Made by a program: the position numbers and the translations under genes. The notes under the pieces were generated by a model. That model did not search any database. It was not told the DNA's origin and saw only the letters and a list, made by a program, of their open reading frames with translations. A stretch of 64,000 nt of DNA from a virus. Taxonomy: Duplodnaviria > Caudoviricetes. This document shows positions 4,736 to 47,149 of this stretch, in pieces. Each line of letters starts with the position of its first letter. Within the stretch, counting starts at the first letter, position 1. The DNA is taken from IMG/VR virus record IMGVR_UViG_3300028048_000052, positions 96,001 through 160,000 of that record; one strand, written 5' to 3'.

Positions 4736-4871
4736 ATCCACAAAACTTACCATTGAACAAAAGAAAGAAATGGTTAATATTTTAAAAGACTTAAAAGAAG
4801 AACAAACTACTTTTAATGCTGACCCAATAAGTGAATTAGTAGCTGATGGAGAAGTTGAAAATGCAGTTTAA
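4686..4871 (+). CDS. Small lysis-cassette hypothetical protein
   Basis: AAGGAG RBS; overlaps both the holin and the lysin. Confidence 0.5.
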   Translation: MARKSNQQPSLKSQKAKSTKLTIEQKKEMVNILKDLKEEQTTFNADPISELVADGEVENAV

Positions 4872-6054
4872 TATTAGAACAACAAAACCGCAAGCTGGTA
4901 ATAAAAACTATATTAAAACAACTTATGGTGGTTGAAATACTTGTGTTATTGGGAGTCCAACAGATAAAGATTGTAATGTTTTAAGCAATTGCGTTGGATA
5001 TGCAAGTGGAAGATTTAATGAAATTTATAATGAAATTACTGGACACACTGGAAGCCATAAGTGAAATATTCTTAATTGCAATGCTGAAAACTTTATTGAA
5101 AGAGCAGAACAATTAGGATTAAAAATTTCAAAAACGCCAACTCTTGGTGGTATAATGGTATGACAAAAAGGTAGTTTAAATTGGCAAGATGGCGCTGGCC
5201 ATGTTGGTGTTGTTGAAAAAATTATTGACGATAATACCATTTATACAAGCGAAAGTGCATGAGGTGGTAGCGCATTTTATAATTCAACCAGAAGAAACAC
5301 AAATGGTAGATGGGGTATGGGCTCAGCTTATTCTTTTAGAGGCTGTATTGTAAACCCGGCTGTTAAAACCATAAAAGTTGCATCAAATGTTAAAAGAGAT
5401 GAAACAAAAGAGCAGGTTGAAGTATTGGTTCCAGATTTAAATGTTAGAATGGAACCAAGCACAAAAGCAACACGTATTGGATTTGCTAAAAAAGGATATT
5501 ACAATATTTTAAACAAAAAAGTTGCTGAAGGGTATACTTGATTAAATATTGCCGAAGATCAATATATCGCATTTAACAATGAGTGAGAAAAAATTTTGGA
5601 ACCTAAGAAAGAAGAAGAACCGGTAGTGCCAACCCCAACTCCAATTCCAGAACCAATTAAACCAACTTTAAAATTTAAAATTGGCGATCAAGTTGTTATT
5701 TCTGGTAAATTATATGCAAGTTCAAATGCAACTATTGCCACGGCTTCTGTATTAGGAAAAGTGACAAAAATTACGCGAGTCGTCGCTGGTGCAAAACATC
5801 CATATAACACCACAAATGATTTGGGTTGAATGGATGAAAGCTCAATTCAATTCTATAATAACGCAGTACCAAAAGAAACAATTAAGGTTGGAGATAAAGT
5901 AAAAGTATTAAAAAATGTAACATATGATGGTAAAAAATTCTTGGCTTTATTCTCTAAATATGATGTTATTGAAGTTAAAGGCAATAGAATTGTTATTGGT
6001 ATTGGTAAGGTTGTTACCGCGGCGGTTCATAAAGACAATTTAAAGAAGGTATAA
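4861..6054 (+). CDS. CHAP-domain endolysin with SH3-like binding domains (397 aa, TGA=Trp)
   Basis: One frame joins track ORFs 5317, 5596 and 5830 through 7 TGAs; catalytic NCVGYA and GAGHVGVVE; PT-rich linker. Confidence 0.9.
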
Positions 6055-17341: not shown

Positions 17342-17944
17342 ATGTTTACAATTTATTTACATAAAAATAAAATTAATAATAAAGTTTATATTGGACAAAC
17401 ATCGCAACCACCAATAGATAGATGAAAAAATGGTAAAGGTTATACGCAATGCTATCATTTTAATAATGCAATACAAAAATATGGGTGAGATAATTTTGAG
17501 CATATTATTTTAGAGCAAGGAGATTGAACGCAAGAAGAGGCGAATTATAAAGAACAATATTATATTAATTTATATGATAGTACAAATATAAATAAAGGTT
17601 ATAATATTACTAATGGTGGAAGTAATAATATTTCACCAAATGCTTTGCCAAATGCAATAAATTGAATGCGAGCACATCCTGATTTTGGATTAGCGAGGGC
17701 CAATGATATGTTAAAATGACAAAAAGAACATCCAGATGACGTTAAAAAGCAAAGAGAAAGAGCACAAAAAAAAATGGCAGAAGCAAGAAAAAGAAAAGTA
17801 TTATGTGTAGAAACTGGTGTTATTTATGAAAGTGCGTCAGAAGCAGCAAGACAAAACAAAGGAACAACACAAAGTAAAATTTGTATGGTGTGCAGAGGAC
17901 AAAGAAAAACGGCGGGAAGATTACATTGGAAATATGCTGAATAA
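17342..17944 (+). mobile_element. Free-standing GIY-YIG homing endonuclease (5 TGA=Trp)
   Basis: TIY..NKINNKVYIGQT, AIQKYG*DNFEH, GYN; NUMOD1-like C-terminus; AGGAGG RBS. Confidence 0.85.
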
Positions 17945-20780: not shown

Positions 20781-22575
20781 ATGAAATTAGAAAATGTAAG
20801 AGTATATAATATTTCAACAGCGTTATTTGGAATGAGAAATCCAAAAAATTCTTGGGATAGAAGAGATACCAAGAGTGGAATTGCAACTTATGATGAAGTT
20901 GTTAAAATGGCTGAAGATAGCGAATTTGATTTAAAAGATATCCTTTTGTATCAAGATGATAATGAAATGTGCGAATATTGTGTTATCGGCCCTAACGATA
21001 TGAAGCTAGCAAAAGTATTAAAAGATGCTGGCACAGAACACCGTAAATATTTAAGACAAATCTTTGTTACAATGGATATTACTGCACCGTTATATTGGTA
21101 GACTTTCTGCCAAAAAATACTTTACCGCTTCATCAGCGGGGTCGCATTAGCGGCTAACGGGGAAGCCTAAACTGAAAAGCATGGTAATCCCGTGGGAAAT
21201 ATAAAAAATAATAAATTAAATGTGTCAAAATATATTAATTCTTATTATATGTTTCTTATATATAATAGGAGGATTAAATAATGAAACAAACAAGAAATTG
21301 TGGTCCACGAAAAGATTTAAGTGGAAAAAAATTTGGTAAATTAACTGCAATATATTATGTTCCAAAAGGAAAATGACATTGCAAATGTGATTGTGGAAAT
21401 GAATTAGATGTGGACACAAGAAATTTAAATAGTAATCATACACAAAGCTGTGGCTGCTTACAAAAAGAAAATGTAAGAAAAAATGCTATTGATATGACCG
21501 GGTATGAAAATAATGGTATTAAAGTTATATCAAAAGCCGAATCTGATAAAAATGGTTACGCTCATTGAAATTGTGAATGTAAAATATGTGGAAGAAAATT
21601 TACTTCTGCTGGTTCAGCTATTAGACAAGGTCTTGTTCAAAGTTGTGGATGCGTTCATTCATTAAACGAGCAATTAATAACAAAAATGTTATTAGAAAAT
21701 AATATAGATTTTGCTAGAGAATATACTTTTGGAGATTTAAAAGGAGTTAATGGTGGGGCATTAAGATTTGATTTTGCGATATTTAAAGATAAAAAATTAT
21801 CTCATTTAATTGAATTTAATGGAAAACAACATTACGAAAAATCAAAAGGTAGTTGAGAAAAAGAATTTGACACATTACAAAAAAATGATAAAATAAAAAA
21901 AGAATATTGTGAAAAAAATAATATTAAATTAATTATCATAAAATATGACCAACAATATTCTTTAAAAGATTTATTATAATTATAAACCTGTAGAGACTAT
22001 CCCGGGTGAGACTGGGAGTACGGCTTCTATTGATACGAAGTTGGAAATGGTATTCTCTTTAAATAAAGAGTAAAAGATAGTCCAATCTATTATGAAAATA
22101 ATAGATAATTGGGAAAGAATTTGATACCTATAAAATCGGTACAACATCCAATAGCCAAAGTACGATGCATAAGATGGCGGCTAAACCAATTACATTAGAT
22201 TGCTTTGAGATTGGTGATTATGAAAAAGATTTAGTTTTTGAAGAAAGCACAGCAGGTGAGCATTCTTGGGATTATCAGTGTAAAGTGGACCACGTTATAG
22301 GTGGAGAAAGCGAAGGCACTTATTATTGGGATAAATGCTACATTAAATTCTTGGAAATGTTGCGTTTAAAATATCTTGAAACAAAAGATATGCGCTACTG
22401 GAAAGAGTTAATTAGATGGCTTCCAGAAAGCTGGTTACAGACAAGAACAATTACTTTAGATTATGAAGTATTGAGTAGAATGTACCAACAGAGAAAAGAC
22501 CATAAATTAAGTGAGTGGCATTGGTTCTGTGACCGGATTGCTGATATGCCATATGCAAAAGACTTGATTTTATAA
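20781..22575 (+). CDS. ThyX-like (flavin-dependent thymidylate synthase-like) protein; exons 20781-21099 and 22112-22575
   Basis: Splicing restores EHRKYLRQI..TAPLYW|WKEFDTYKIGT..NSQSTMHK...LP...RKDHKLSEW. Confidence 0.75.
21100..22111 (+). ncRNA. Group I intron in the thyX-like gene
   Basis: Exon ends in U; P1 TTGGT|AG pairs with CTGCCAA (U.G); core GTAGAGACTA...AAGATAGTCC; terminal G; frame restored. Confidence 0.9.
21281..21979 (+). mobile_element. Intron-encoded endonuclease (Cys-rich repeats plus Vsr/EDxHD-like domain; 3 TGA=Trp)
   Basis: KFGKLT..K*HCKCDCG..SCGC repeats; LRFDFAI..IEFNGKQHY..D. Confidence 0.8.
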
Positions 22576-28837: not shown

Positions 28838-29578
28838 GTGCCAAAATTAATTGATTTGACCGGGAAAAAATTTGGAAAACTTATTGTAAAAGAAAGAGCA
28901 CCAAATAAAAATAACCAAGTATGTTGATTATGTAAATGTGATTGCGGGAATGAAGTAATTGTCACAAGAAGAGAATTATTAACTGGACATACTAAATCGT
29001 GTGGGTGTTATCGTAAAGAGATTACCGCAAAAAGAAATAAAGAAATAAAACCTAAAAAATTAGATGGGTTAAGATTTGGCAAATTAACTGTTTTAAAGCC
29101 AACTGAATTACGAGATACAAATGGCGCAATAATTTGAGAGTGTGTTTGTGATTGTGGAACACATACAATGGTTCGTGGAAATTTATTAGTTAATGGAATG
29201 ATACAGAGTTGTGGATGTGTAAAATCACAAGGAGAACAAAAAATTATTGACATTTTAAAAAAATATGATATAATTTATGAAAAAGAAAAAACTTTTGAAA
29301 CATGCCGTTATCCAGAAACAAATTTCTTATGTCGTTTTGATTTTTATGTTAATAATAAATATTTAATAGAATTTGATGGTGAACAACATTTTAAAAAAAG
29401 TAAATATAATAATAGTTGAAATACAGAACAACATTTAAAAGAAACTAAAATGCATGATGAATATAAAAATAATTGGTGTAAAGAAAATAATATCCCATTA
29501 ATTAGAATTCCTTACAACCATTTAAATGAATTAAAAATAGAAGATTTAATGTTAGAAACAAGTAAATTTGTTATTTAA
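28838..29578 (+). mobile_element. Free-standing endonuclease, paralog of the thyX-intron ORF (3 TGA=Trp)
   Basis: GTG start after GGAGG; DLTGKKFGKL..C*LCKCDCG..SCGC twice; RFDFY..IEFDGEQH. Confidence 0.8.
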
Positions 29579-39952: not shown

Positions 39953-42900
39953 ATGATGAAATATGTGATTAAACGAGATGGGCGAAGAAAGGATTTCAAT
40001 GAGGCAAAAATTGAAGCGGCTATTTTAAAAGCATTTATTGCGGTTGACGGTGAAGCAACAGATTACGCAAAAGAGAAAGCAAAAAATATAGCTGATTATA
40101 TTAATAATTTAGAACAAGAAGAATTAACAGTTGAGGAAATCCAAGATTTAGTAGAAAAAGGATTAATGAGCTGTAAAAGAAAAGATGTTGCAAAAGCCTA
40201 TATTCTTTATAGAGAAGAAAGAAGCAAAGAAAGACAAAGAAAAACAAGATTAATGGGCGTTATTAAAGAAAAATTAGATGCCTCTAATGTTGTTAATCAA
40301 AATGCTAATGTAGATGAGCACTCTTTCGGCGGAAGAAAAGGTGAAGCAACAAACGAACTGATGAAGCAGTACGCCCTTGATTATTGCGTATCTGAATTAT
40401 CAAGAAATAATCATTTAAATAATGAAATCTATATTCATGATTTAGATAGTTATGCTGTTGGTATGCATAATTGTCTTACAATCCCATTTGATAAATTATT
40501 AGCAGAAGGATTTAATACAAGACAAACTGATGTGCGCCCTGCTAGCAGCGTAAATACTGCGTTTCAATTGGTAGCTGTAATTTTTCAATTACAATCATTA
40601 CAACAATTTGGCGGTGTTAGTGCTAGTCATTTAGATTGGACTATGGTTCCATATGTCAGAAAGAGTTTCTTTAAACATTGGCGAGATGGGCATAAATTTT
40701 TATTAAATGATAATGATGCAGATAACTTAATATTTTTTGCAGATAAGTCAATTGATGATGAATATTATAAAGATGGTGCTTATGAATATGCTATGGCTAT
40801 GACACAAAGAGAGTTAGACCAAGCTGTTGAAGGCATGTATCATAATCTTAATACCCTTCAATCAAGAAGTGGTAATCAATTACCTTTTACCTCAATTAAC
40901 TATGGTACTTGCACATTGCCAGAAGGAAGAATGGTTATTAAATCATTATTAGATAAATCTATTGAAGGCGTTGGCAAAGTTAGAAAAACTCCAATTTTCC
41001 CTTGTGGAATTTTCCAATGCATGAAAGGCGTTAATAGGAAACCGGGAGATCCTAACTACGATTTATTCCAGTTAGCCTTAAAATCAACTGCTAAGAGATT
41101 ATATCCAAATTATGCCAATATTGATTGGAGCAATAACGCTGGATATGATATAAATGATCCAAAAACTTATTTTAGCACGATGGGTAAGCGAAACTTAGCT
41201 CATCTAAAATCTTTTGAACCACGCTCGTGGGTGTTCGCTTAAAGCGAGCTAACGGTTAGGCCCCTCTGGGGTGAGACCGTGCTAAGATTTATCATAATAC
41301 TCATATTGGAGAAAATATGTGAGTATATAAAATTACAAATATTCAAAATAATAAAGTTTATATTGGTCAAACAATAAGACCAATAGAGCAAAGATTTAAT
41401 CGTCATATAAATGATGCATTAAACAATATATTAGATACTCATTTTGCAAGAGCGATTAGAAAATATGGCAAAAACAATTTCAAAATTGAAATTATTGACA
41501 TGGCTCAAACGCAAGATGAATTAAATAAAAAAGAACAATATTGAATTAAATATTATAATTCTACTATTGATGGTTATAATGAAACGGATGCTATTTCTAA
41601 ATGCGGTGGTAATACTTATAAAAGTAAAACTTTAAAAGAAATGGCAGATATAGAAGAAAAAATACGAAAAACAAAAATAGGAAAATTAAATCCTATGGCT
41701 CGTAAAATTAAAAGAATAGATGTTAATACCAATGAATTTGAAATTTATGATACGATAATTGCTTGTGCAAAAGCTTGTGGTATAAAAAATGGGAAAACAT
41801 CTATTTCGCAAAGATTAAATGGGAATATAAAAACACCCTATAAAGATAAATGAATATTTGAGTATTATGATAAATAAAGTGTACAGACTATCCCTGATGA
41901 ATGTAAGGGAGTAGGGGTGGAGATAAGCACCACTCCGAAGCGGAAGACTACTTAATAGTAGAAGATATAGTCGGTACCAATGGTAACATTGGAAAAATAC
42001 GTGCAGAACGGCAAATGGCGCTGATATTAATGCAGAACCGGGCACAAACCCACAAACAAAAGATGGTAGGGGAAATATATGCCCTGTTACCATTATTTTA
42101 CCAACATTAGCAATGGAAGCAAAAGAAATTTCCGGAGATACTGTTGATAATTTCTTTGATATTTTAGAAAGAAAACTTGTTGAAGCAAAAGATATGCTTA
42201 TCGAAAGGTATGAATATATCTGTTCTCAAAGTCCAGAAAGTGCAAAGTTTATGTATGAAAATGGTACAATGTTAGGATACCACCCAGAAGAAGGAATTCG
42301 AAGTGCATTAAAGCACGGTACTCTTGCTCTTGGTCAATTGGGCTTGGCTGAAACTTTACAAATTTTAATTGGTAAAGATCATACAACAAAAGAAGGCATG
42401 GATTTAGCAAAAGAAATTGAGGAATTGTTCCAAAAGAGATGTGCAGAATTTAAACAAAAATATCATTTAAATATTGGTGTTTATTATACTCCTGCTGAAA
42501 ACTTATGCTATACAGCAATGAAAAAGTTTAAAGCAAAATATGGGGAGATTCCAAATGTAAGTGATAGGGAATATTTTACAAATTCAATTCATGTTCCTGT
42601 TTGGGTAAAGATTGACCCATTTACTAAAATTGATATTGAAAGTCAATTAACTGGCTATTCAAATGCTGGTTGTATCACTTATGTTGAATTAGAAGGCACG
42701 GCTGGTAATAACCTTGACGCATTAGAACAGTTAGTTAATTATGCCATGGATAAAGATATCCCTTATTTCGCAATCAATGTTCCAAATGATACTTGTCTTG
42801 ACTGTGGTTATACCGGCGAATTTAATGATAAGTGTCCTGTTTGCGGAAGCACCCATATCCAACAGTTAAGAAGGGTTACAGGGTACTTAACTGGTAATTA

Positions 42901-45896: not shown

Positions 45897-46499
45897 ATGA
45901 ATATTAATGCAGATGCAATGTTATCATATATTTTGGTTGCTGTTGGGGGATTTTTAATTAAATATCTTTGAGATAAAATGGTTGAAAATGGCAAAGAAAA
46001 ATCAGAAAAAGCTGAAGCGTATGATAAAAAAGTTTTAAGAGAGGTTGTAGAAGACATTGTAAAAGAGTCTTGTATGCAATTTAAAGGCGGATTAGAAGAA
46101 TCAATTAATGAATTTAAAGCTCATGCCGAAAATGAATTTAAAAGATATAGCGAAATGTATTGGAAAGCTGTTGGTAATTTAGAAGATGTTGAAAAGAACT
46201 TCAAACATTTAAGAGAACAAGATTTAGCATTTTATAAATACCAATTAATTAATAGCTGTAAAAAATATATTTCACAAGGTTTTATTACACAATATCAATT
46301 TGATAGATTAAGTGAATTACATAAGATTTATCATGATTTAGGCGGTAATAGCCAAGGTGATATGTATTATGAAAAAGCAACTCAATTAAAAATTATTAGC
46401 GATAATTCTTATAAAGCAATTGATCAAATGGATGATGAATTATATGTTACGGAGGCCGATATGAAAGACCTGCACGTAAAAAAAGAGGAAGAACAATAA
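45897..46499 (+). CDS. TM plus coiled-coil protein with YHDLGGN motif (holin-associated type; 1 TGA)
   Basis: GGAGG RBS; ATG 45897 is in frame with track ORF 45978 through a TGA. Confidence 0.65.
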
Positions 46500-46518
46500 A
46501 GTTCTTCCTCTTTTTTTA
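46480..46518. terminator. Bidirectional terminator at the strand convergence
   Basis: AAAAGAGGAAGAAC-aataaa-GTTCTTCCTCTTTT. Confidence 0.7.
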
Positions 46519-46563
46519 TTTATCTGGACCTTCTACATAGGCAGCCAGTTAGCCTCATGTTTA

Positions 46564-46869
46564 TGGCAGGGGGCGAAGGACTCGAACCCTCATAGCCGAG
46601 GTTGGAGCTCGGTTCGCGGTTTTGCGTACCACTGCAATTTTCATTGCCCTTGCGGTTTGTGGTCTGGACTATATCTTCACCATATATCTCTACTTAGGTG
46701 GCTGATTATCTAGTCTCTACGGGCCAAATTACTCTGTTCCCTCGGTGTTACCAGTTAAGGATTCACCGATATCATCAGCTCCACTATTACTGTTTCCAGT
46801 AATAGGCTCCAATTGAGTAAAATTACTCTTTTTAAAGACCGATTCCGTTCCCAACGGTGAAAACCCCCT
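46564..46869 (-). tRNA. Atypical tRNA, anticodon UCA after splicing (putative Trp opal decoder); exons 46869-46835 and 46624-46564
   Basis: Acceptor AGGGGGT/GCCCCCT-G-CCA; T arm GAGGG-TTCGAGT-CCTTC; spliced anticodon arm CGGT-CTT|CAAA-ACCG; extra CCGAG-CTCCAAC-CTCGG arm. Confidence 0.85.
46625..46834 (-). ncRNA. 210-nt group I intron (IC3-like) inside the tRNA anticodon
   Basis: P1 CTT|T-AAAA-AGAG with U.G pair; CTATTACTG-GAAA-CAGTAATAG; GCTGAT/ATCAGC P3; GTAGAGACTA and AAGATATAGTCC core; terminal G. Confidence 0.9.
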
Positions 46870-46871
46870 AT

Positions 46872-47060
46872 TTATTCTCCTAATGCATCTTCATCAGTAA
46901 CTAACATCCATTTATTACGAAATAAAATCGTTTTATATGGATATAAAGTTTCTGTTTCTTTTATATAAATATATAATTTTATTTCTTCTGGAAATTCTTG
47001 CCCAAAAAGCCAAGTTTCTACTTTCTGGAATTGTTCCATGTTATCAACAGTTAATATCAT
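46872..47060 (-). CDS. Hypothetical protein directly upstream of the tRNA
   Basis: Follows TTGGTA-N17-TATAAT; stop codon 2 nt before the tRNA 5' end. Confidence 0.55.
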   Translation of the reverse strand: MILTVDNMEQFQKVETWLFGQEFPEEIKLYIYIKETETLYPYKTILFRNKWMLVTDEDALGE

Positions 47061-47149
47061 ATTCTTATTCCTTTTCTATTTATATTATACTATATTTTTT
47101 TTATTTTTACCAATAAAAAAATGGGGAGCAAACGCTCCCCTTATTTTTT

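Follow-up and report, generated by a model that had tools for sequence, protein, structure and literature searches.

A predicted phage opal suppressor tRNA with a conserved tryptophan-type anticodon arm in its variable region

Suppressor tRNAs with a UCA anticodon are known from gut phages of the Agate, Jade and other clades, in which TGA is reassigned to Trp (Borges et al., bioRxiv 10.1101/2021.08.26.457843). They were detected in only 35% of the code-4 genomes of that study, non-canonical structures were suspected, and the question of their charging in phages that encode no synthetase was left open (Borges et al., bioRxiv 10.1101/2021.08.26.457843). Enrichment of TGA in virion genes is the pattern of recoded phages with standard-code hosts (bioRxiv 10.1101/2021.08.26.457843). 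The phage described here resembles those phages: it is a large gut phage with TGA meaning Trp concentrated in structural and lysis genes, it encodes a UCA suppressor and it has relatives with mixed codes. Its suppressor differs by a second anticodon-type arm, a feature not described in the preprint (bioRxiv 10.1101/2021.08.26.457843). While Jade phages carry TrpRS and RF1, this phage has neither, and a likeness to the Agate and Sapphire clades was seen only in the mixed-code pattern among its terminase relatives.

With bacterial tRNA-Trp(CCA) the RNA shares G73, the pairs A1-U72 and G2-C71 to G5-C68, the sequence of the anticodon arm (PMC9976931; PMC12135181) and a CCA loop whose spacing from the T arm is canonical. 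In contrast to tRNA-Trp it is 96 nt long, its CCA loop belongs to the variable region and a UCA arm stands next to the D arm, so that it is not a canonical tRNA-Trp (single CCA arm, short variable loop). A long extra arm is found as well in class II tRNAs (Ser, Leu, Tyr), tRNA-Sec and the allo- and selC* tRNAs (PMC5389517); the UCA anticodon is common to this RNA, tRNA-Sec and selC*, and G73 to this RNA, tRNA-Ser and tRNA-Sec. Nevertheless, its acceptor and T stems have 7 and 5 bp, unlike the 8/5, 8/4 or 9/3 bp of tRNA-Sec, selC* and allo-tRNA (Mukai et al., PMC5389517), its extra arm has an invariant anticodon-type loop with long unpaired links on both sides, and the amino acid inserted would be Trp. 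The Rfam model for tRNA-Sec (RF01852) gave 19 bits against a gathering score of 47. An anticodon mimic outside the normal position is known from the E. coli thrS operator, which presents two anticodon-like domains to the synthetase (PMC9976931). The operator, which is readable by a synthetase, is a regulatory element of an mRNA, neither charged nor decoding, and in this it differs from a suppressor tRNA. In Blastocrithidia and Zinderia a tRNA-Trp(CCA) whose anticodon stem has 4 bp reads UGA, and such a tRNA reads through UGA in E. coli (PMC13092985). UGA-to-Trp reassignment is common to these organisms and our phage, and positions 27 and 43 are unpaired in the UCA arm of the suppressor as well as in the phage's own tRNA-Trp(CCA). 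Their tRNA has a single, near-cognate CCA arm, whereas the UCA arm here is cognate, and its stem has 4 bp in only 16 of the 90 family members among the matches listed (see below).

The window, a stretch of 64,000 nt, belongs to a phage contig of 175 kb that has a terminal repeat, and sequence near-identical to this phage was found in bovine gut sequencing runs. A CHAP endolysin points to a Gram-positive member of the Bacillota as host. The tRNA(UCA) gene is located on the minus strand at 46869-46564 and consists of two exons and a group I intron. The 5′ exon (46869-46835, 35 nt) holds the 5′ strand of the acceptor (46869-46863), a 5-nt connector, a shifted D hairpin (46857-46845) shared with a subgroup of the family, the 5′ side of arm 1 and C32-U33-U34. 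The intron (46834-46625, 210 nt, terminal G, no ORF) is inserted between U34 and C35 and is followed by the 3′ exon (46624-46564, 61 nt). After splicing arm 1 (between 46616 and 46842) has the loop C32-U33-U34-C35-A36-A37-A38 with the anticodon UCA, presumably decoding UGA, on a stem of 4 bp with a U27/C43 mismatch. Arm 2 (46596..46612), a copy of the tRNA-Trp anticodon arm and the presumed identity element for TrpRS, has a perfect 5-bp stem and a 7-nt loop CU-CCA-AC (46607-46601). A 4-nt link (46592..46595), as long as the variable loop of a class I tRNA, leads to the T arm, the 3′ strand of the acceptor, G73 (46567) and an encoded CCA end (46564..46591, all on the minus strand).

A previous sequence-only reading of this DNA had proposed a spliced RNA of 96 nt with a UCA and a CCA anticodon arm and a Trp-type acceptor. 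Removal of 46834-46625 reproduced that RNA exactly, both arms were found, the second one being conserved in a family of tRNAs, and A1-U72, the G-C pairs at positions 2 to 5 and G73 are all present. ARAGORN folded the joined exons into a cloverleaf with the anticodon UCA and labelled it tRNA-SeC; by RNAfold alone the cloverleaf lies within 1 kcal/mol of the minimum but is not singled out. In a search of the whole window the unspliced gene was missed by ARAGORN with default settings and by Rfam at the gathering score. Since such programs overlook the gene or label it tRNA-Sec, tRNAs of this kind may help to explain why suppressors were missed in most recoded phages.

Group I introns are found in anticodon loops of bacterial tRNAs, as in cyanobacterial tRNA-Leu(UAA), where the insertion follows U34. 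The intron described here has the same insertion point, and its predicted self-splicing would likewise be needed to form the anticodon, but it interrupts a suppressor tRNA and occurs sporadically. It matches the group I model of Rfam (RF00028) over the model length with an E value of 4.5e-5 (28 bits, gathering score 50) and has a P1 helix with a U-G pair at the 5′ splice site, the terminal G and the conserved core. By direct reading the junction CUU|CAA of the joined exons is matched without a mispair by the guide sequence UUGGAG of the intron. Moreover, three syntenic orthologues (L033, L046, L126), which share the holin gene, a 62-aa ORF, the tRNA and a 200-aa gene with neighbours at 70-89% identity, have an intronless tRNA with the identical junction. 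Thus, neither the splice site nor the UCA anticodon is a guess; an 8-nt loop and a Leu(CAA) register were ruled out by the guide pairing and the intronless orthologues. Among the matches listed 15 of 118 family records have the intron, without exception at one and the same position, and in several of them it contains an ORF of 130-160 aa. According to this sporadic occurrence the intron is a mobile passenger outside the design of the tRNA. The ORFs, located in the 5′ part of introns of about 600 nt in L005, L006, L013, L019 and L101, belong to at least two unrelated types and probably encode homing endonucleases. A single contig from a bovine rumen metatranscriptome spans 46554-46954 with zero differences and with the intron; as it may derive from DNA, it does not indicate expression. 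Contigs from RNA runs, which can show presence but not absence, contained the unspliced form and no spliced joint. A second split tRNA of this phage (G000:C1:64519-64811), Leu-type with a long arm and A73 and mislabelled as Lys by ARAGORN, has a group I-like intron, about 210 nt long, in its anticodon loop and is followed by a tmRNA with an unusual tag (G000:C1:64817-65162).

The 62-aa ORF (46872..47060, minus strand), which contains no TGA, ends 2 nt before the tRNA. It had no match in PHROG; it lies upstream of the orthologous tRNAs in L033, L046 and L126 as well (70-80% identity) and was seen beside only four tRNA homologues. Upstream of the ORF-tRNA unit a sigma-70-type promoter-like site (47084..47113, minus strand) matches the consensus at 10 of 12 positions, a consensus match that gave four sites where 2.6 are expected by chance. 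The ORF probably shares this promoter with the tRNA. The promoter-like site lies behind a bidirectional terminator-like hairpin (47123-47140) following the holin gene. Just downstream of the tRNA, where the plus- and minus-strand gene blocks converge, an A/U-flanked hairpin (46479..46520) was recognised by direct reading and by hairpin-type Rfam matches. It was missed by the promoter/terminator scan and is likely a terminator.

The coding density of the phage genome is 0.84 with code 4 and 0.65 with code 11. TGA is enriched in virion genes, which have 68 TGA to 130 TGG codons, compared to the replication block with 16 TGA to 114 TGG (p 5e-6). The plus-strand block is otherwise poor in TGA; the codon is concentrated there in small endonuclease-like ORFs and in the endolysin, where it accounts for 7 of 9 Trp codons (TGA-rich ORFs at window positions 4846-6054, 17342-17944, 21281-21979, 28838-29578 and 41317-41877). 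In an alignment of the terminase, the column of TGA-37 (W37) is TGG in all 80 homologues and that of TGA-247 is W in 55 of the 80, while another column is TGG in this phage and TGA in its two nearest relatives. In the lysin the W106 column is W in 104 of 104 homologues, and four TGA columns are W or Y/F across these homologues; the two lysin homologues that were checked at the DNA level have no TGA. Ser was found in 2 of 80 sequences at one TGA column of the two alignments and at none of the others. As judged from these alignments, UGA means Trp and not Ser in this genome, in line with the sequence-only reading. By its UCA cloverleaf and the meaning of TGA in the genome, the RNA is predicted to work like a phage opal suppressor tRNA-Trp in both suppression and charging. 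The terminase family of this phage (L268-L347) comprises three codes, TGA as Trp (this phage, L268 and L269), TAG as Gln (many members) and the standard code.

G73 and a long extra arm are determinants for SerRS (PMC9976931), ARAGORN labels the RNA as tRNA-SeC, and its 3′ half weakly matches the Rfam tRNA-Sec model (E 0.51). Charging by SerRS, as in a class II suppressor of the Ser/Sec type, is nevertheless hardly credible. Besides the Trp or aromatic residues in the TGA columns, where Ser is almost absent, the acceptor is of the Trp type with 7 bp and A1-U72, the T stem has 5 bp, and SerRS reads the size of the arm and not its sequence, yet the loop is invariant. No TrpRS or TyrRS, class II synthetase core or release factor was found in the phage genome, which agrees with the earlier proposal that UGA is recoded without an own synthetase. 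The phage also encodes a tRNA-Trp(CCA) of ordinary length (G000:C1:68094-68168, corresponding to L264:8095-8169). This tRNA has a 4-bp anticodon stem (C27/U43), and its loop CU-CCA-AC with C38 is the same as that of arm 2 of the suppressor.

Homologues were collected by three pattern scans, which fixed arm 1 and the T arm and left the variable region free with the second loop unspecified; the acceptor was imposed in two scans and left free in the third. At least 109 distinct UCA tRNAs were obtained, comprising at least 92 G73 tRNAs whose variable region is long, at least 13 plain ones and at least four Sec-like ones. Among the matches listed, 90 of the 92 long-variable G73 tRNAs contain U-C-C-A in the variable region, which is found in 8.4% of shuffles. 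In these 90 members U33, C34, C35 and A36 of the arm-2 loop are invariant and A37 is conserved in 88, while all four pairs 27-30 of the stem are kept in 79. Two-sided changes occur at all five stem pairs, the mutual information at four of them amounts to 1.0-1.6 bits, and the covariation score of the whole structure is 0.667 compared to 0.168 after shuffling and ≤0.13 after sliding. An arm-2-type loop was present in none of 20 tRNA-Trp(CCA) with a long variable arm listed from the same scans. Such long arms (about 20 tRNAs, in L027, L029, L034, L043, L050, L055, L064, L123 and others) are themselves unusual for tRNA-Trp. Four further members, each carrying A37-A38-A39, came from a scan that fixed only the first five bases of arm 1. 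The counts overstate independence, since much of the family is closely related. The turnover of the stems around U33-A36, invariant in 90 of 90 members among the matches listed and accompanied by varied acceptor and D arms, implies selection on the loop sequence. Thus, the second arm is a genuine feature, which is both conserved and subject to selection. Non-conservation of the CCA loop among homologues, which would have spoken against the two-arm proposal, was not observed.

The 4-bp stem of arm 1 and the atypical D arm pointed out by the earlier reading are present in this copy but are not family traits: arm 1 has five pairs in 74 of 90 and four pairs in 16 of 90 members among the matches listed, and the odd D arm is limited to a subgroup of eight sequences. 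The 4-bp stem, the shifted D hairpin and the intron are features of this lineage.

Could arm 2 be left over from a duplication, or be a generic structural arm, so that its sequence has no role of its own? It resembles arm 1 in many members, and a tRNA-Trp on a metagenome contig (L025:740-835) shows an exact tandem duplication of the CCA anticodon arm (CCA+CCA), possibly an evolutionary intermediate or an assembly artefact. In addition, CCA is missing from the long arm of two members. We consider this explanation very improbable and largely refuted by the complete turnover of the stems around the invariant U33-A36. As to its origin, arm 2 probably did arise by tandem duplication of an anticodon arm. 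The two exceptions, L017:2905-2999 (plus strand) and L019 (minus strand), are the only long-armed G73 UCA tRNAs lacking the CCA loop among the matches listed; both have Trp-type acceptors, and L019, which has the group I intron, lies in TGA-recoded DNA.

TGA recoding is clearly supported by the coding density of sampled stretches for the near-complete two-arm genomes G035, G048 and G042, and weakly supported for G033 and G046. Outside these records, an exact search with the arm-2 sequence of this copy gave two chance matches only, and a collection of cultured phages contained no two-arm tRNA, the matches being 3′ halves or attachment sites. L018 and L020 were rejected as family members, since they are attachment-site halves of ordinary tRNA-Trp. 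Three matches were obtained in the GTDB species genomes, two of them tRNA-Sec-like and one a two-arm tRNA, whose 3-kb contig was binned as Treponema but is probably phage DNA; accordingly, the design looks restricted to phages. The opal two-arm form was found in none of 27 terminase relatives, most of which have the standard code or are TAG-recoded.

The distance from the end of the arm-2 loop to the T stem is 9 nt in 68 and 8-10 nt in all of the 90 members among the matches listed, which confirms for the whole family the geometry of a normal tRNA-Trp(CCA) arm that had been noticed in this copy. The link following arm 2 often has the class I-like sequence RGGU. Among the matches listed, the 15-48 pairing is kept as A15-U48 or G15-C48 in 55 of 65 members, and a purine-purine 26′/44′ pair tops arm 2 in 35 of 90. 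Arm 1 of typical members begins one base after the D stem, and the linker between the arms is variable (2-7 nt in 88 of 90 among the matches listed). Each arm is thus canonical on one side, which suggests two stackings of one secondary structure: with arm 2 under the D stem the molecule would have the normal shape of tRNA-Trp, with arm 1 under the D stem that of a UCA decoder with an extra arm. A switch of secondary structure by cross-pairing of the arms was rejected, as cross pairs average 3.2 and 2.8 of 5 compared to 4.8 and 4.5 for the own pairs and are not conserved. Both hairpins coexist, so any switch would be tertiary and concern which arm stacks under the D stem. The idea of two folds therefore fails for two secondary structures and is retained here in this reformulated sense.

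The canonical T-arm distance of arm 2 would also fit a two-state decoder, in which arm 2 reads UGG by default until, late in infection, a factor of the phage or some condition flips the tRNA to UCA and turns on late genes. The enrichment of TGA in virion genes and the conserved 62-aa ORF abutting the tRNA in this lineage are in agreement with such a timing switch. We regard it as quite unlikely. G32 and an unpaired 31-39 are rare in working anticodon arms, while among the matches listed arm 2 has G32 in 39 of 90 members and an unpaired 31-39 in 24 of 90. The ordinary tRNA-Trp(CCA) that many two-arm carriers also encode, sometimes directly adjacent, means that arm 2 is not needed for UGG, and the presence of the 62-aa ORF beside only four homologues likewise speaks against a general timing factor. 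Arm 2 has drifted at positions constrained by decoding, yet it keeps the bases read by TrpRS (PMC12135181; PMC9976931).

We therefore favour, with reasonable though not high confidence, the reading that arm 1 decodes UGA and arm 2 serves as an identity element for the TrpRS of the host; of the explanations weighed it is the most likely. The gene would be transcribed from its own host-type promoter, and self-splicing of the group I intron would generate the UCA loop. The host TrpRS would then read G73 and the G-C acceptor stem and bind the CCA loop of arm 2. For this step arm 2 would be stacked under the D stem, as its canonical distance from the T arm permits, with arm 1 looped out, giving the ordinary shape of tRNA-Trp. 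On EF-Tu and the ribosome arm 1 would take the place on the D stem, arm 2 would project like a long variable arm, and UGA would be read as Trp. Charging and decoding are probably linked by this swap of the arm stacked on the D stem. As outcome, the phage would recode a stop codon with one RNA and an unmodified host synthetase.

TrpRS was found in none of 24 two-arm records (23 virus records and this genome), whereas three of the 13 records with a plain UCA tRNA encode it (p 0.037 by Fisher's test); for near-complete records only, the ratio is 0 of 9 to 2 of 4 (p 0.077), both contrasts coming from small, related samples. The three matches, in L188, L206 and L169 (G057, G060, G055), were confirmed as TrpRS by their motifs. 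Two of the three plain UCA tRNAs linked to them have A73, as expected for a private pair, which suggests that these are private tRNA-synthetase pairs. There is evidence against the handle as well, namely plain UCA tRNAs in recoded records, the two long-armed tRNAs without CCA loop and the phage's own tRNA-Trp(CCA) with its 4-bp stem. Plain UCA tRNAs in records where no TrpRS was seen come, for example, from G061 and G056, which are only 11-19% complete.

The sequence-only reading had started from the premise that a plain UCA tRNA is a poor substrate of TrpRS. This premise is weakened by the structure of the E. coli TrpRS-tRNA complex, in which only O2 and N3 of C34 are contacted and N4 is not (PMC12135181). 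TrpRS reads C35 and A36 above all, and according to the authors the enzyme need not discriminate between C34 and U34 (PMC12135181), so a charging handle may not be needed. Nevertheless, as N3 is protonated in U and N3 is the atom contacted in C34, by our own reasoning some penalty for U34 is plausible.

If TrpRS tolerates U34, charging may proceed directly via the UCA arm, and arm 2 may have a different partner that recognises a Trp-type anticodon loop. It could act as a decoy or shield for an anticodon nuclease, as a dock for a modifying enzyme or as a ligand of a T-box riboswitch of host trp or trpS genes. Anticodon nucleases and T-boxes are established players, and an invariant loop on a variable stem fits any anticodon-specific protein or RNA. 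We consider such a partner unlikely. A decoy would need neither a position in cis nor a fixed distance from the T arm; among the matches listed the loop is found only on suppressors and never on long-armed CCA tRNAs; and its carriers lack TrpRS, while some plain-UCA phages have the enzyme. Furthermore, the second triplet follows the assigned amino acid in two systems, CCA with Trp and CUG with Gln.

The second of these systems consists of amber tRNAs in which a CUA arm precedes another arm bearing a CU-CUG (Gln) loop, for example at L543:8308-8406 (plus strand). Three distinct forms, L543/L592, L585/L591 and L601, have a Gln-type acceptor and a clean 5-bp second stem; L654/L655 is a looser form. 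Three of the records with amber forms are related to this phage by their terminase and contain in-frame TAG; across this terminase family TAG is mostly located at Gln columns. The second arm was part of the amber search pattern, so that these counts show existence and not frequency; the patterns mostly caught ordinary tRNA-Gln via its D arm. In both combinations, CCA/Trp and CUG/Gln, the second triplet thus agrees with the residue to which the stop codon is reassigned. This is a prediction of a synthetase handle and not of a generic decoy. Whether both forms represent one modular class of two-headed tRNAs (UCA+CCA for Trp, CUA+CUG for Gln), with one arm for the synthetase, one for the ribosome and a stacking swap between them, and hence a general RNA-only route of codon reassignment with unchanged synthetases, we judge to be evenly balanced.

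The role of a phage stop-codon suppressor is already known; the architecture, in its opal/Trp and amber/Gln forms, we rate as a new kind of tRNA. A full-text search of the published literature, covering few subscription journals, found no tRNA with two anticodon arms, in accordance with the earlier statement that no described tRNA of this design was known; one match for 'double anticodon' concerned an engineered six-base loop and not two arms. The design provides a testable answer to the question of Borges et al. how suppressors are charged without a phage synthetase. If arm 2 is indeed a handle for the synthetase, nature would break the rule by which identity and decoding depend on one and the same anticodon, and the tRNA would be a template for engineered suppressors in cases where the synthetase reads the anticodon, with uses in genetic code expansion and nonsense suppression.

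Among the amber tRNAs with a CUG loop is also L604. In several amber two-arm tRNAs the stem and loop of arm 1 are of the tRNA-Trp type except for the middle base of the anticodon.
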